A stretch of 64,000 nucleotides of DNA from Candidatus Bathyarchaeota archaeon (lineage in GTDB: Archaea; Thermoproteota; Bathyarchaeia; 40CM-2-53-6), in the NCBI GenBank assembly GCA_963783645.1, contig CAWAOH010000016.1:11782-75781 (forward strand), read 5' to 3'. A program made the position numbers and the translations under genes. Each line of letters begins with the position of its first letter. The first letter of the stretch is position 1. Of this stretch, positions 52,064 through 57,961 are shown piece after piece. The notes below the pieces were generated by a model. That model was not told where the DNA came from and made no database searches. It saw only the letters and a program-made list of their open reading frames with translations.

Positions 52064-52462
52064 TTGTCGTCTGAGCTGAAAGTAGGACTGATCGGTGAGG
52101 TTAGTCAAAAAGTCACCGAAGAAGATACAGCTGCACGGTGGGGAAGCGGGCTCGTTGATGCTTATTCTACCCCGGCGTTGATAGCGCTAACGGAGAAAGC
52201 AAGCGTTAGAGCCATTGAGAAATTCTTGAGCGTCAACCAAGCAAGTGTTGGGGTTGAGGTCAATGTGAAACACCTTGCGGCGACGCCCATAGGCATGGTT
52301 GTGAAGGCTAGGGCAGAACTCGTAGAAATAGATGAAAGGCGGCTGAAGTTCAGGATTGAGGCCTGGGACGAGAAGGAAAAAGTCTGCGAGGGGGCGCATT
52401 TTCGAGCCATCGTTGATAGATCTCGTTTTGTCAATAGGTTGATGCAAAAGGTAGAAGGGTGA
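52064..52462 (+). CDS. Hotdog-fold thioesterase (FlK-like family)
   Basis: 132 aa. WGSGLVDAYSTPALIALTEKA...VGVEVNVKHLAATPIG...RLKFRIEAWDE. Confidence 0.65.
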   Translation: MSSELKVGLIGEVSQKVTEEDTAARWGSGLVDAYSTPALIALTEKASVRAIEKFLSVNQASVGVEVNVKHLAATPIGMVVKARAELVEIDERRLKFRIEAWDEKEKVCEGAHFRAIVDRSRFVNRLMQKVEG

Positions 52463-52496
52463 CCAGAGAGACGTTAGCGTGCCACGTTTGTCGCTT

Positions 52497-52571
52497 CGGA
52501 ACGTTTCGAAACGTTCCGCGTTCCGAAACTGAGTAACATCTTGCTGTTTCGAAACGCGTTTCGATACTCAG
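52497..52571. repeat. Array of TTCGAA-centred palindromes (4 copies of GTTTCGAAAC-like decamer)
   Basis: A 22-bp perfect palindrome at 52497..52518 and a 16-bp perfect palindrome at 52549..52564. Decamers at 52503, 52520, 52546 and 52558. Outer inverted repeat CTGAGTA/TACTCAG at 52529..52535 and 52565..52571. Confidence 0.8.
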
Positions 52572-52621
52572 CTAACGTTGGTAGGCAGGGTAGTCCCACA
52601 TGTAGGAGTATTGGTCAGAGT

Positions 52622-52783
52622 TGGTGCGGCCGCCGGGATTCGGACCCGGGTGACCTCGTTGTTAAGGCAACATTGAGGCTTGGGAAGCCCCCGTCATAGA
52701 CCAGGTTGTCCTTCCAGAAGGAAACTGGACCACGGCCTAATGGAGGATCTCTCTCGCACTCGGATGCCAGCCTTTTCGACCGC
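52622..52783 (-). tRNA. tRNA-Gly(CCC)-like gene with multiple extra sequence blocks (candidate multi-intron tRNA, or a decaying tRNA)
   Basis: T arm CCGGG-TCCGAAT-CCCGG, 3' acceptor CGGCCGC-A-CCA, anticodon arm GGGGC-TTCCCAA-GCCTC, and D arm TG-GTCC..GGAC. Anomalies: 162 nt long, C at position 55, and the 5' acceptor next to the D arm reads TAGGCCG, while GCGGTCG lies 44 nt upstream. Confidence 0.5.
52652..52672 (-). other. Candidate 21-nt BHB intron at tRNA position 45/46
   Basis: CCUC:GAGG 4-bp helix flanked by 3-nt bulges AAU and UCA, with internal hairpin GUUG-CCUUAA-CAAC. Excision leaves a 4-nt variable loop AAAC. Confidence 0.45.
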
Positions 52784-52804
52784 AATGAGAATTCCTCGAG
52801 CTTA

Positions 52805-52812
52805 GGATAAAA
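52805..52812 (-). promoter_or_regulatory. TATA-like box TTTTATCC about 26 nt upstream of GCGGTCG (52783)
   Basis: Reverse complement of GGATAAAA. The spacing fits an archaeal TATA-to-start distance. Confidence 0.35.
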
Positions 52813-52929
52813 GCGTCGCGACGGTTCGCGCAAGCAACGCCTAAGACTGTTAAGTGTCCGGCTTCGCTTGGCGGAGGAAATTAGACCAAAAAAGTTGCCC
52901 TCAAGAAAAGGGGGCATGAATGGTTATGG

Positions 52930-55143
52930 TTAGTCTACGAAGTCCTGTGGAGTCGGCGGCTCGGGTGCTAGGCCCTTACGTTTGCGGATATCAGTGATTA
53001 CTTGAGTTACTAGTGACTGCGGAACTGGTGCCCAACGTGCAAATTCTAGTCCCCAAAATGCTCTACCCTGAGATTGGCTTCGCATCACTTCTGACAGGTC
53101 GAATGTTTCAGCAGTAGGTAATTCTCCGACTACATATACAAGGTGCCCTCGTTGATCAACCGAGACTATTTTACCCCGCTTTTGGGAGATCACACTTGTG
53201 GCTGCTCCCAGAAGGTCCGGTGGCACCTTAACGGTAATTCTTTGAATCGGCTCTAGGAGTACTGGGTTGGCGCTTAGGAATGCGATGAAGAACGCTCGGC
53301 GACTCATGGGCATAATCTGAGCTGGCCCACGGTGGACAGGATCTTCGTGCAATGATACGTCAGTCAGCGTGACTTTGATGCCACGAATTTGTTCGTATGC
53401 CAGCGGGCCCTCTTTCAGTCCCCACCTGTATCCGCCTAAGATCATTTCCTTGACTTCCTGCAGGTATTGAGCGCCTTTTGTGACCTCTACCAGCATGTTG
53501 CTCCCTTCATCAACACTCCAGACGCCACGTGCCTGGTCCGGCGGCCAGCCTTCATCTCGAAGGATTTTGGCCAGTTCATGTCGATCTTGGTATTCGCCGA
53601 TCTTTCCTTCCTTTATCATATCTACGATCTTGTCCGGAAGCGGCTCAACGGATAGGTAGACCTTGTTATGTTTGTTAGGCGACTTTCCTTCAACCGGTCC
53701 AGCTGATCCCTTAACGCTTTCCCGATAGATGACAATGGGGGTTGTTGTTGCAATCTCGAGACCGGTCTTCGTGATCAATGTTATAGCAATTTCTAAGTGG
53801 AGTGTTCCCATCCCTGCGATCAAATATTCGCCGGTTTCCTCGTTGATCTTAGTTACGAGGTTCGGATCTTCAAGGGTTAATCTTCGAAGAAGTTCAACTA
53901 GCTTCGGTAGATCCCTGCTATACTTCGGCTCTACAGCGATCGTAACGACTGGTTCAGTAACGTAGTGAACCGACTCGAAAGGAGCGATATCCTTCACCGT
54001 TGACAATGTTTCTCCCGATTTGGCAGCATCCAGTCCTAAAAGTGCGGGAATGTTTCCAGCGTTGATAGTCCCAATTATCTCTCTGTACGGCCCCATGAAG
54101 ATGCAGACTTGTTGCACACGTTGGTCAACGCGAGCTCCGAGAAGATGGAATGTTGAACCTTCTTTGATAGTTCCAGAGAATAATCGACCGACCGCTACTA
54201 CTCCGGCCTGTGGGTCAACGACAATGTTCGTGATCGCCATGACCACTGGACCCTCATCATCGCAGTTCATCATGGCCTTGCCAACCTCACTTTCGATGTC
54301 CCCCTTCCAGATCTTCGGAATACGATACCTCTGTGCCACGTGTGGAGGAGGCATCGCTTCAACTGACATGTTCAGTATCGCTTCGTGCAGTGGTGCACGT
54401 TCGCGAAGTTGTGCGACCGTATCTTGTGTGTAAGCGTCAACAACATCCTGGAATTTCACACCCTTCTCCTTTGCTACTTCAGCGTTGAATCCCCATCGAT
54501 CTTTGGCTGAACCCATGGCAACCGTGTTGCCCGCGAAACTAACTTTCCACTTCTCGCGGTATTCAGGCTCCGCATACAATTCAATCAGTCTATTGAATTC
54601 GGTAATAATTCGACTGATTCTTTCCTGAATTTGCTCCGGATTCAATCGGAGTTCTTTGATCAGTCTATCAATCTTGTTGATGTAAAGAACAGGTCTCACT
54701 CTCTCCTCAAGCGCCTGTCTAGTGACCGTTTCAGTCTGAACCATTATCTCTTCGACCGAGTCGACGACAACGACAGCACCGTCAATGGCACGCAGAGAGC
54801 GTGTCACCCTACCGGAGAAGTCAACGTGACCAGGAGTATCGATCAGATTGATGACGTATGGAATTCCATTTCTTTCATGAAGCAAACTAACGTTCGCTGC
54901 TTTGATCGTCATCTGACGTTTCTGTTCTTCCTCCATAAAATCCAGCGCTAGCGCTGTTCCAGCCATTCCAGGAGACAGGAGACCAGCTGCGGCAAGGAGT
55001 GAATCGCTCATCGTCGTCTTTCCGTGATCGACGTGGGCGATGATTCCCATATTTTCCGGACGTAGGTCTACCTACGGCTTACGGATTTGCTCCTTGTTCG
55101 TGATGATCTTCTGTATTTCAGTTGTGCTCTTGTAGCGGGGCAT
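52930..55143 (-). CDS. fusA: Translation elongation factor aEF-2, interrupted by a 27-nt insert carrying an in-frame TAG
   Basis: Track ORF 52930..55050 starts MGIIAHVDHGKTT and lacks the N-terminus. Upstream in the same frame, ATG 55143 encodes MPRYKSTTEIQKIITNKEQIR, then KP-TAG-VDLRPE. Also DTPGHVDF and the diphthamide-site HRGPAQ. Confidence 0.9.
55053..55079 (-). other. Candidate 27-nt bulge-helix-bulge intron inside aEF-2
   Basis: See the first finding. Central helix UCCG:CGGA, bulges UAA and AAA, and an internal hairpin. Excision gives ...EQIRNMGIIAHVDHGKTT. Confidence 0.55.
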
Positions 55144-55312: not shown

Positions 55313-56341
55313 TTGGGCTTCAACCTTACGCCCATAGTGGTCAAGCAACGTCTTACGCTGAACGAGCTTTGGGGGAGAGTTCTTGCTGTAGATGCAAACA
55401 ACATGCTTTACCAATTTCTGGCTCTAATCCGGATGCGTGATGGTAAGCCATTTACCGACTCCGCAGGGCACGTCACGTCACATTTGATAGGTCTTGTTCT
55501 CAGGACAACTCGCCTGATCGCTGAATTTGATATTCGCCCTGTGTTCGTGTTTGACGGAAAGCCTCCGGCACAGAAAATGCGAACTCTTGAGAAACGGCAT
55601 TTCGCTCGCGACAAGGCTAGGAGGGATTGGGAGCTCGCTGTAGGCCGGGGTGACTATGCCACTGCAATGTCAAAGGCTGTACGCATGGATTCCTTGACGC
55701 ATGAGATGAAGGAAGATGCAAAGCGAGCACTGTCACTACTTGGTATACCTACGATCCAAGCTCCTCAAGAAGGCGAAGCTCAAGCCGCTCACATGGCTAG
55801 ACGCGGAGACGTCTGGGCTGTCAACAGTCGCGACTATGACTCTGTATTATTCGGTTCTCCCCGCATGATTCGCTATTTGACAATATCAGGCCAAGAGTAT
55901 CTTCCAAGCAAGGGCGTGTCCCGGCCTCTCATCCCCGAGCTCATTGATCTTCAGAAAATGCTAGCGGCGTTGCATATCACGCTGGAACAGTTAGTTGACT
56001 TGGCAATACTCGTTGGAACGGATTTCAACGAGGGCGTTCGAGGGGTCGGACCGAAAACCGCATTGAAACTGATCAAGAAACACCACACGCTGGAGAATTT
56101 TCCGACGGAAATTATAGAGAAGCTCCCGCAGGACTTGGAAGGACTACGTGACTTGTTTCTTCATCCAGAGGTAACGAATGAGTACGATCTGCGTTTTTCG
56201 GCGACTGATGAAGAAGGACTTGTTCAGTTCTTATGTAGGAAAAGAGGTTTCGCAGCTGATAAGTTAGATCTTGCGATTCAGCGAATGCGACTCTTCAGGG
56301 CTCGAAGTTCGAAACTGAGTTCGTGGTTTGATTCGAAATGA
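55313..56341 (+). CDS. fen: Flap endonuclease FEN1
   Basis: 342 aa, TTG start. MGFNLTPIV..., AVDANNMLYQFL, QAPQEGEAQAAHM, VGTDFNEGVRGVGPKTALKL. Confidence 0.9.
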   Translation: MGFNLTPIVVKQRLTLNELWGRVLAVDANNMLYQFLALIRMRDGKPFTDSAGHVTSHLIGLVLRTTRLIAEFDIRPVFVFDGKPPAQKMRTLEKRHFARDKARRDWELAVGRGDYATAMSKAVRMDSLTHEMKEDAKRALSLLGIPTIQAPQEGEAQAAHMARRGDVWAVNSRDYDSVLFGSPRMIRYLTISGQEYLPSKGVSRPLIPELIDLQKMLAALHITLEQLVDLAILVGTDFNEGVRGVGPKTALKLIKKHHTLENFPTEIIEKLPQDLEGLRDLFLHPEVTNEYDLRFSATDEEGLVQFLCRKRGFAADKLDLAIQRMRLFRARSSKLSSWFDSK

Positions 56342-57961
56342 CCAACGTGCCTCAAACTCCTTTTTCAGATTTTGTTAACATATGCAGGCAGATTGAATCG
56401 ACTACGAAGAGGAACCAAAAGGTCGCAGTCTTAGCTAGCTTCCTAAAGTCGCTACACCCTGCTGAGATAATCCCGGCGGCCACCTTTTTCTCGGGACACG
56501 CCTTTCCAGAATCCGACGAACGTGTACTAGATGTTGGCGGTCGAACCATCTGGAAGATGGACAGGAAAACCAACCAATCAACCTTGGTCGTCCAACCTGT
56601 AGCTCTGTTGGACGTGTACGAAACCTTCGGCCGGATTGCCGAAGCTTCTGGTTCTGGTTCCCGTCAGAGAAAAGAGGCGCTTCTGGAGACACTGCTAGGT
56701 CGTCTGGGCGCTTCGGATGCCGAATACCTGATGAGAATTATCTTCGGTGAAATGCGCATCGGAGCCGTAGAAGGCGTAGTGCTTGAGGCGATTGCTCTTG
56801 GGAGTAACCTTCAGCTGGATGATGTGAGGCGAGCGTACATGCTCCTAGGCGATCTCGGGCGTGTTGCAAAACTCTGCCTGACCGAAGGATTCACTGGAGT
56901 GCAAGCAGTTGGTGTACAACTCTTCGTTCCAATAAGACCAATGCTTGCCGAGATGGCGCAGGATATAGAGGAGGTACTCAGAGAGCACGGAGGAATCACT
57001 GCCCTCGAATACAAATACGACGGGGCAAGAATTCAAATTCACGGAAAAGACGAAATCATCCGAATCTTCAGTCGTAGACTGACTGAAGTAACGGACAGCC
57101 TTCCAGATATCGTGAGGTTGGTTAGGGATGGAATCTTGCCCGGAACAAGACAGTTCCTCGTGGAAGGAGAAGTTGTGGCTGTGGCACTAGATGGTAGACC
57201 ATATCCGTTCCAGGAGTTGATGAGACGCTTCAGGCGCGTCCACGATAGTTCAATCAATGTCAGCGCAAATCCCACTCAGACTTCACCTCTTCGATATCAT
57301 CTATCTCAACGGTAAGATGCTGATAGACGCGTCCAACGATGACCGTTGGACAACCCTGCGAACTCTTGTTGGGCCCGAGTTGCTGGCAACTAGAATAGTG
57401 ACTTCCAAAGTGGAGGATGCGAAGGTACTGATGGAGCAGGCAATTCGTTCTGGCCATGAAGGAATAATGGCAAAGGATTTGAAAAGCAATTATACGCCTG
57501 GCGTACGCGGAAAGAAATGGTTCAAGATCAAGCCAGTCGAAACACTTGACGTCGCGATCATAGCTGCAGACTGGGGCTCCGGCAGAAGAAAGGGATGGTT
57601 GAGCAACTACCATCTTGCAGTCCGAGATGACCAAACGGGAGAATATCGGGTAGTTGGGAAGACTTTCAAAGGTCTTACAGACGATGAATTTGCAACGGTC
57701 ACTGAGAAGCTTTTGGAATTAAAGACGCGGGAAACTGAATACACCGTGTATGTTAAGCCGTCAATCGTTGTGGAAGTCGCATTCAACGAAATACAGAGGA
57801 GCCCGCACTACGTGTCCAAGTTCGCTCTACGATTCGCCCGTATTACCAGATTCCGAGATGACAAACGTCCAGAAGATGCAGATACTCTGAACAGATTGGA
57901 GACTCTTTATGAAAATCAGTTCAAGTTCAAGGCAAAGACCAACTTCGGTGTCGACTCATGA
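56338..57961 (+). CDS. lig: ATP-dependent DNA ligase, frameshifted as assembled (+1 near 57265)
   Basis: EYKYDGARIQIH (KxDG), LVEGEVVA, then FQELMRRFRRVHD / SAQIPLRLHLFDIIYLNG in overlapping ORFs 56338..57315 and 57257..57961. Confidence 0.9.

Follow-up and report, generated by a model that had tools for sequence, protein, structure and literature searches.

The tRNA-Gly(CCC) locus

We analysed a 64,000-nucleotide (nt) stretch of a contig from a Candidatus Bathyarchaeota archaeon (the window), in which a tRNA-Gly(CCC)-like gene lies on the minus strand next to the gene for archaeal elongation factor 2 (aEF-2). Pfam assigns the adjoining upstream open reading frame (ORF, 52930..55050), on the same strand, to aEF-2, and its closest relatives among species-representative genomes are metagenome-assembled genomes (MAGs) of soil and peat Bathyarchaeia, the best at 96% and 95% identity. 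The 162 nt of the minus strand that an initial annotation of the locus had quoted, from 52783 to 52622, were verified letter for letter. The elements named there are present, namely the T arm with C55, the acceptor strand CGGCCGC followed by ACCA, the anticodon arm, a TATA-like TTTTATCC, and a GCGGUCG that nearly repeats the 5' strand of the mature acceptor stem and lies 44 nt upstream of UAGGCCG. We propose, with a probability of about 0.85 and from sequence comparison, that the Bathyarchaeia archaeon has here a functional tRNA-Gly(CCC) gene broken by three short bulge-helix-bulge (BHB) introns. The arrangement of its features is given in Table 1.

The gene escapes standard detection. ARAGORN reported zero tRNAs across the 64-kb window, and the unspliced gene was also negative with and without intron mode. 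The unspliced gene gave no Rfam match at the gathering score; a permissive scan of 52450..52950 returned a partial match to the tRNA family RF00005 at 13.4 bits, against a cut-off of 29 bits, with the block at 45/46 treated as an insertion. A T-arm pattern scan of the window found this gene as the sole candidate, with no further hidden tRNAs. A 100-aa ORF on the minus strand (52615..52917) covers the promoter and the whole of the tRNA gene; this ORF is almost certainly not real, although automatic gene prediction could enter it as a hypothetical protein.

We built an orthologue series from 80 fetched loci related by aEF-2, which are numbered here with the prefix L. In 35 of these loci aEF-2 is followed by the 3' exon of tRNA-Gly, and we therefore regard this gene as the regular tRNA-Gly(CCC) gene of the lineage.

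Table 1. Features of the tRNA-Gly(CCC) gene and the adjoining aEF-2 coding sequence (CDS). The index i within the tRNA gene is defined by window coordinate = 52784 - i.
Feature	Window coordinates	Strand	Description
Predicted archaeal promoter	52805..52822	-	TATA-like TTTTATCC at 52812..52805; conserved GTCGCGA at 52822..52816
5' leader	52758..52783	-	26 nt; GCGGUCG (52783..52777), variable 2-4-nt loop, GGCUGG (52772..52767)
Exon 1	52755..52757	-	GCG, tRNA positions 1-3; directly 5' of the BHB cut CG|A
Intron A	52737..52754 (i30-47)	-	18 nt, AGAGAGAUCCUCCAUUAG, position 3/4
Exon 2	52725..52736	-	GCCGUGGUCCAG, tRNA positions 4-15
Intron B	52706..52724 (i60-78)	-	19 nt, UUUCCUUCUGGAAGGACAA, position 15/16
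Exon 3	52673..52705	-	tRNA positions 16-45: D-loop remainder, D-stem 3' strand, anticodon arm, A44 A45
Intron C	52652..52672 (i112-132)	-	21 nt, UGUUGCCUUAACAACGAGGUC, position 45/46
Exon 4	52622..52651	-	A46, C48, T arm CCGGG-UCCGAAU-CCCGG (C55), acceptor 3' strand CGGCCGC, A73, encoded CCA
aEF-2 CDS	55143..55080 + 55052..52930	-	joined after removal of the insert

Three predicted introns with a common BHB geometry

In the BHB motif a 4-bp central helix separates two 3-nt bulges that bear the splice sites, and for the intron at 37/38 the first two anticodon bases sit within the central helix (PMC4090602). This geometry places each bulge on the 3' side of its strand of the central helix, with the cut after the second of the three nt (2|1). 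We checked this rule in the clade-3 orthologues, which carry a canonical 37/38 intron with UUCC (positions 32-35) paired to GGAA and bulges CA|U and AC|A. The gene at L075, spliced by the same rule, was called tRNA-Gly(CCC) by ARAGORN.

The three introns in the window share one geometry, which consists of a 4-bp helix between two 3-nt bulges on opposite strands, each cut 2|1, an inner hairpin and one outer closing G-C pair. The initial annotation had described a BHB for the block at 45/46 only and had found no convincing motif elsewhere; we find clean BHBs at all three introns. The four extra blocks that it had counted reduce to these three introns and a leader.

For intron A, the central helix pairs AGUG (52760..52757) with CAUU (52742..52739), the bulges are CG|A and AG|G, the inner helix is GAG/CUC, and G 52761 closes the motif with C 52735. 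Cuts at 52755|52754 and 52737|52736 join GCG (52757..52755) to GCCG. With exon 1 placed at this GCG, the preceding nucleotides 52783..52758 are a 5' leader. The 5' acceptor strand had been sought in UAGGCCG or in the upstream GCGGUCG, whereas the canonical BHB dissects this region into an 18-nt intron and a 26-nt leader. The GCG of exon 1 is invariant in 15 of 15 genes, inside a conserved GAGUGCGAGAG, and provides G1-C72, C2-G71 and G3-C70. The GCCG of exon 2 is invariant among all orthologues, while the three nt that precede it vary (UAG, UUA, CGA, UAA, UGG).

Intron B has the central helix GUCC (52730..52727)/GGAC (52711..52708), bulges AG|U and AA|C, and the inner helix UUCC/GGAA. Two blocks that had been regarded as separate, one in the D loop and one after the D stem, are thus a single 19-nt intron, and the GUCC/GGAC that had been taken for the D stem is its central BHB helix. 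The true 3' strand of the D stem is UGAC (52696..52693). Joining 15 to 16 yields the D loop AGCCUGGUCUA, which the intron-less genes of L060 and L079 have in identical form.

Intron C follows the anticodon arm GGGGC-UUCCCAA-GCCUC of exon 3 and is as first described, with the central helix CCUC/GAGG, bulges AA|U and UC|A, and the inner helix GUUG/CAAC. An alternative register for this intron, GCCU/AGGU (23 nt), was rejected since it leaves a variable loop of 2 nt.

The strict hBHBh' motif has an outer helix of at least 2 bp, and here one conserved G-C pair lies outside each motif. The introns therefore belong with the relaxed, HBh'-like motifs. All four exons are collinear on one strand inside 52783..52622, so that the gene is neither split nor permuted.

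The predicted spliced product

Excision of 52754..52737, 52724..52706 and 52672..52652 gives a 78-nt RNA, GCGGCCGUGGUCCAGCCUGGUCUAUGACGGGGGCUUCCCAAGCCUCAAACCCGGGUCCGAAUCCCGGCGGCCGCACCA, with an encoded CCA. ARAGORN identifies it as tRNA-Gly(CCC), and it has a 7/7 Watson-Crick acceptor stem and A73. An exact cloverleaf is thus recovered when the same rule is followed at all three sites, namely a 4-bp helix with 3-nt bulges that are cut 2|1. The product is 81% identical to the intron-less tRNA-Gly(CCC) at the same locus in L060 (Nitrososphaerales) and 77% identical to that of L079 (Marsarchaeota), with at most one gap. ARAGORN and the alignment to intron-less orthologues stand here in place of covariance-model scoring of the spliced sequence.

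A loose BHB pattern is common by chance, and 23 candidates turned up when the last 203 nt of the gene region in the window were scanned. We therefore made an unbiased enumeration, in which candidate BHB introns were removed at most three at a time, 451 combinations in total, and each product was submitted to ARAGORN. Every positive product requires the excision of intron B. The product lacking introns A, B and C combines complete pairing of the acceptor stem with a variable loop of 4 nt; complete pairing is seen in one other product only, which uses the shifted register of intron C and has the 2-nt variable loop. Glycine identity in archaeal and eukaryal glycyl-tRNA synthetase systems depends on G1-C72, C2-G71, G3-C70, A73 and C35/C36. 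The full set of these elements occurs only in the product from which all three introns are removed.

Conservation and turnover among orthologues

The pair count of each intron motif takes in the closing pair, all four pairs of the central helix and the first four of the inner helix, and as a control the 3' partner was slid by 1-3 nt. Gene counts include the gene in the window. Intron A (15 genes, 18-23 nt) has 95% standard pairs, against 31-58% when slid; intron B (23 genes, 19-41 nt) has 95% against 35-59%; and intron C (11 genes, the window and 10 orthologues, 20-24 nt) has 99% against 33-64%. Some of the changes within these pairs are compensatory. In intron A a central U-A pair is C-G in L039, and the fourth inner pair is C-G or G-C. 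The inner helix of intron B covaries strongly, its first pair being U-A, G-C or A-U, and in intron C the second inner pair changes from U-A to C-G.

The layout of three introns seen in the window is common to ten orthologues. Their spliced exons are 95-100% identical to those of the window, and fully identical in 8 of the 10, while identity is 42-89% for the introns, whose lengths also differ, and 65-96% for the leader. The aEF-2 proteins are merely 87-96% identical across the genomes whose exons match the window fully. RNAalifold, applied to the window and these ten orthologues, recovers the hairpin of intron A, the central and inner helices of intron B and the inner helix of intron C, as well as the anticodon and T arms. 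Exons that are conserved while introns drift and keep their pairs indicate a functional interrupted gene, not a pseudogene.

Comparison of the wider series reveals the gain and loss of introns. The intron at 15/16 is common to three clades, and intron A and the leader are common to two of them. The third intron differs, being at 45/46 in the clade of the window, at 29/30 (22-23 nt) in L012, L013, L014 and L018, and at the canonical 37/38 in L027-L033, L040 and L075. More distant genes have one intron near the anticodon (L019, L022, L023, L042) or none (L060, L079). In this series the gain and loss of introns can be followed cleanly within one gene, as in a natural experiment.

Promoter, leader and proposed processing

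The predicted promoter probably functions as such, as judged from its conservation and spacing. The centre of TTTTATCC lies about 26 nt upstream of 52783, and in the measured clade 1-2 orthologues TTTTAT or GTTTAT is found about 29-31 nt upstream of the first G of the leader. Most clade-1 orthologues also have GUCG[CU]GA upstream of the TATA element. In the measured clade-3 genes, which are without intron A, the distance from TATA to the mature 5' end is 30-32 nt.

The leader is conserved in 15 genes (the window and 14 orthologues), with the 7-mer and GGCYGG kept while the loop and the linker vary. Its 7-mer is able to pair with GGCUG as a 5-bp hairpin, for which the clade-2 version is CGGCC/GGCCG. 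The initial annotation had placed the 7-mer in a diverged direct repeat (CTCATT/CTCCATT); the repeat context is unconserved in the orthologues, and only the acceptor-like 7-mer is kept.

From these features we infer the start site, the processing enzymes, removal of the leader by RNase P, and expression. Transcription would start at or next to G 52783, at the spacing given above from the conserved TATA box, and would yield a primary transcript of about 162 nt with a 26-nt 5' leader and introns at 3/4, 15/16 and 45/46. Each intron would fold locally into a BHB from exon (or leader) and intron strands. The three motifs do not overlap, so they could form simultaneously and no order of removal is required. 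The endonuclease EndA would cut two nt into each bulge, an RtcB-type ligase would join the exons, and RNase P would remove the leader before G 52757. The start near 52783 suggests that the GCGGUCG of the leader may be the ancestral 5' end.

Alternative readings

Several observations weigh against a functional gene with three introns and a simple leader. Both RNAalifold and the minimum free energy (MFE) fold pair the 7 nt of the leader with the 3' acceptor strand, as expected from the model of the initial annotation, and the leader is strongly conserved although its role is one that we infer. In single-sequence folding the conformer with three BHBs has -29.5 kcal/mol, against -62.3 for the MFE, and the fold is no more stable than those of shuffled sequences (z = -1.38). 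Relaxed motifs with a 1-bp outer helix need a broad-specificity endonuclease, such motifs being known to require the (alpha-beta)2 or epsilon2 enzyme (PMC5829648, PMC4033280); the eight ORFs near the gene, scanned against Pfam, include no endonuclease subunit, and no search aimed at EndA was made. Lastly, the C13-U22 mismatch and C55 are unusual for a tRNA. The MFE fold of the single sequence lacks the BHB conformers and its stability is at the level of shuffles, so thermodynamics alone is uninformative here.

The pairing of the leader raises the question of which sequence is the acceptor strand. If the real 5' strand were GCGGUCG (52783..52777), with a U5-G68 pair, then the 44 nt to 52733 would be one large intron at 7/8, or an intron at 3/4 with exon 1 at 52783..52781. 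Besides the two folding predictions, in which two variants (C5, U6) keep the pairing, the 7-mer lies at the TATA distance of the mature 5' end in the measured clade-3 genes that are without the block, and ARAGORN accepts the product with GCGGUCG as well. However, no BHB gives cuts at i 7/8 and 51/52. The sole 4-bp helix, CGGU/GCCG, would cut after G53 and lose U8 and G9, and the helix for a 3/4 cut at 52781|52780 pairs at 2-3 of 4 positions and is unconserved in the orthologues. Candidate BHBs with the upstream GCGGUCG as exon were tried at junctions 2/3, 3/4, 4/5 and 7/8; each of them either forms just 2-3 of the 4 central pairs or yields a wrong product, and conservation is seen for none. 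An upstream acceptor strand would also leave unexplained both the invariant GAGUGCGAGAG, whose covarying BHB cuts exactly after the internal GCG, and the pattern of three variable nt followed by an invariant GCCG. We consider it improbable. Decay of the gene, with inserts that are junk and another tRNA-Gly(CCC) that serves the cell, had been the other option of the initial annotation, and we hold it to be highly improbable. It would account for the failure of the standard detectors, for C55 in place of the near-universal U55 and for the C13-U22 mismatch, and our view is of the 64-kb window, not the whole genome. Yet full identity of the exons in 8 of 10 same-layout orthologues, while the introns fell to 42-89%, is not the relaxed constraint of a pseudogene. 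BHB pairing has been maintained by compensatory changes, the promoter and synteny are conserved, and C55 is found throughout the lineage.

Given three real introns, the role of the leader could be more than that of a 5' extension removed by RNase P alone. Its 7-mer might be a surrogate acceptor strand, a relic of the ancestral 5' end; it would hold on to the 3' end of the precursor up to the excision of intron A, after which the joined GCG and GCCG, which pair perfectly, would take its place. Exon nucleotides 1-4 are tied up in the BHB conformer of intron A and are not free for the 3' strand, so the leader copy may serve in their place. The conserved 7-mer and GGCYGG beside a variable loop and linker, the pairing in both folds and the TATA distance are consistent with this, as is a G-U wobble in the leader copy (U5, or U6 in L011) that makes it weaker than the true strand. 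The copy is a perfect GCGGCCG in L012 and L018, so weakness by design is not general. The 3' strand is invariant, so covariation cannot speak, and a simple 5' hairpin that stabilises the transcript accounts for the same conservation. We regard the surrogate role as a tentative suggestion, less likely than a leader without it. Equally tentative is the related history, in which the 7-mer is the ancestral acceptor 5' strand at the old start, displaced by an insertion of about 44 nt that carried its own GCG and BHB intron, and is now possibly selected as a surrogate acceptor or as a 5' hairpin.

C55 and the anticodon loop

The T loop (52640..52646) reads UCCGAAU, with C55 at 52645 in place of the normally invariant U55. 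C55 occurs in 15 related loci (L001, L002, L004, L007, L008, L011-L015, L018, L019, L022, L037, L039), as UCCGAAU or UCCAAAU, and U55 in L010, clade 3 and more distant lineages (UUCGAAU or UUCAAAU). Its presence in 15 related loci marks C55 as a lineage trait, not a sign of decay. It could be handled by C-to-U editing or by a G18-C55 pair.

The anticodon loop also shows an unusual base in some orthologues. It starts with CCCCC in L012, L018, L023, L042 and L079 (CCCCCAA in L012, L018 and L023), which puts C at the almost universal U33.

A candidate BHB intron in the aEF-2 mRNA

The aEF-2 gene is interrupted by an insert of 27 nt on the minus strand (55053..55079), which carries a TAG stop and lies about 2.3 kb upstream of the tRNA gene. 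The initial annotation had likened this insert to the 45/46 intron, and we find the same helix and bulge layout in it as in all three tRNA introns, with the central helix UCCG/CGGA and bulges UA|A and AA|A. Its excision restores ...KEQIR|NMGIIAHVDHGKTT.

Scanning of the related Bathyarchaeia loci gave 29 with a BHB insert at this aEF-2 junction (within L003-L026, L034-L036, L038, L039 and L041-L043), and aEF-2 is interrupted likewise in the nearest relatives, L001 and L002. The inserts are 25-32 nt long, often not a multiple of 3, and their inner helix covaries. They are absent from L027-L030, L032, L040, L044 and L045; the clade without tRNA introns A and C is also without the insert.

The endonuclease substrates other than tRNA and rRNA that are named in the literature consulted are cbf5 mRNA and one Haloferax 5' untranslated region (UTR) (PMC7714728), and the BHB intron of cbf5 pre-mRNA is known from Crenarchaeota (PMC2738675, PMC7714728). 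The aEF-2 insert belongs to the same substrate class as the Crenarchaeota cbf5 intron and differs from it in gene and lineage. A literature search that combined BHB with elongation factor 2 gave no relevant paper. Thus, the aEF-2 insert may be a new protein-coding BHB intron, cbf5 being the sole archaeal coding case in the literature searched. The conserved aEF-2 intron looks more novel than the tRNA gene, which gains interest as part of an intron-rich Bathyarchaeia locus.

Neighbouring features

Downstream of the tRNA gene and before a thioesterase gene, palindromic repeats of the CGTTTCGAAAC type occupy 52502..52556 on the minus strand. Rfam gave only a chance-level miRNA-like match for them (15 bits), and their role between the two genes could be that of a terminator or of a site for protein binding.

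On the plus strand, a gene for an ATP-dependent DNA ligase (56338..57961) is broken into two overlapping ORFs near 57245..57260 (RRVHD / ..VQSMSAQIPL). A BHB intron was rejected here; the gene is uninterrupted in L002, L008, L011, L015 and L039, and no convincing BHB was found. The break looks like a simple frameshift or indel, from an assembly error or a pseudogene.

Some contigs with the archaeal aEF-2/tRNA-Gly locus are filed as bacterial MAGs (L001, L006, L007 and L027, under Methylomirabilota, Acidoferrum, Acidiferrales and 'bacterium'), and are probably mis-binned.

Comparison with known systems and implications

Tracts of sequence with several BHB introns are known from the tRNA genes of Thermoproteales, which have up to three at non-canonical positions, and of Thaumarchaeota, which have multiple non-canonical introns (PMC4033280, PMC8450103, PMC4090602). 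The tRNA-Pro(UGG) of Pyrobaculum islandicum, for example, has introns at 25/26, 37/38 and 56/57 (PMC4090602, PMC4033280, PMC8450103), and tRNAscan-SE 2.0 extends its candidates by 60 nt for 5'-proximal introns whose motif uses flanking sequence (PMC8450103). The gene in the window resembles these multi-intron tRNAs in having up to three short BHB introns, some at non-canonical positions, in its relaxed motifs with a central helix drawn from the exon, in a 5'-end intron that uses flanking sequence, and in rapid intron gain and loss among relatives. Unlike them, it belongs to a mesophilic soil and peat lineage of Bathyarchaeia, is without the canonical 37/38 intron, and has a conserved 26-nt leader starting with a copy of the acceptor strand and a lineage-wide C55. 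Compared with the canonical 37/38 hBHBh' intron, such as that of the clade-3 orthologues, the 4-bp helix, 3-nt bulges and cut positions are the same, whereas the introns lie at 3/4, 15/16 and 45/46 and the outer helix is one G-C pair.

There is also a likeness to the split tRNAs of Nanoarchaeum equitans (PMC4033280), in which exon pieces are joined at BHB-like motifs involving leader sequences. Unlike split and tri-split tRNAs, the gene has its four exons in order on one strand within 162 nt, with a single predicted promoter, and needs no trans-splicing. The tRNA-Gly of Caldivirga maquilingensis is reportedly among the split or tri-split genes. Known tRNA intron positions are said to be listed by Sugahara et al. 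in 2008, and introns at 3/4 and 45/46 have presumably been reported before. Our literature search found no paper tying Bathyarchaeota to non-canonical tRNA introns. The multi-intron gene thus appears to be a known but rare arrangement, newly noted for a Bathyarchaeia lineage within the literature searched.

Because ARAGORN and Rfam miss the gene, tRNA-Gly(CCC) will seem to be missing from the genomes of this lineage, which is abundant in soil and peat; this lowers their apparent completeness and distorts inferences from codon usage. Documented endonuclease-dependent splicing concerns mainly the tRNAs of Thermoproteales and Thaumarchaeota, cbf5 mRNA and one Haloferax 5' UTR. The tRNA and aEF-2 introns together suggest that such splicing is wider in Bathyarchaeia than documented in the literature searched. 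If the leader is indeed a displaced acceptor strand, it would record the entry of an intron into the acceptor stem, and tRNA maturation would gain a step that the leader assists. Such a leader and the aEF-2 intron would then make these soil Bathyarchaeia a second hotspot of endonuclease-dependent splicing, this one mesophilic.

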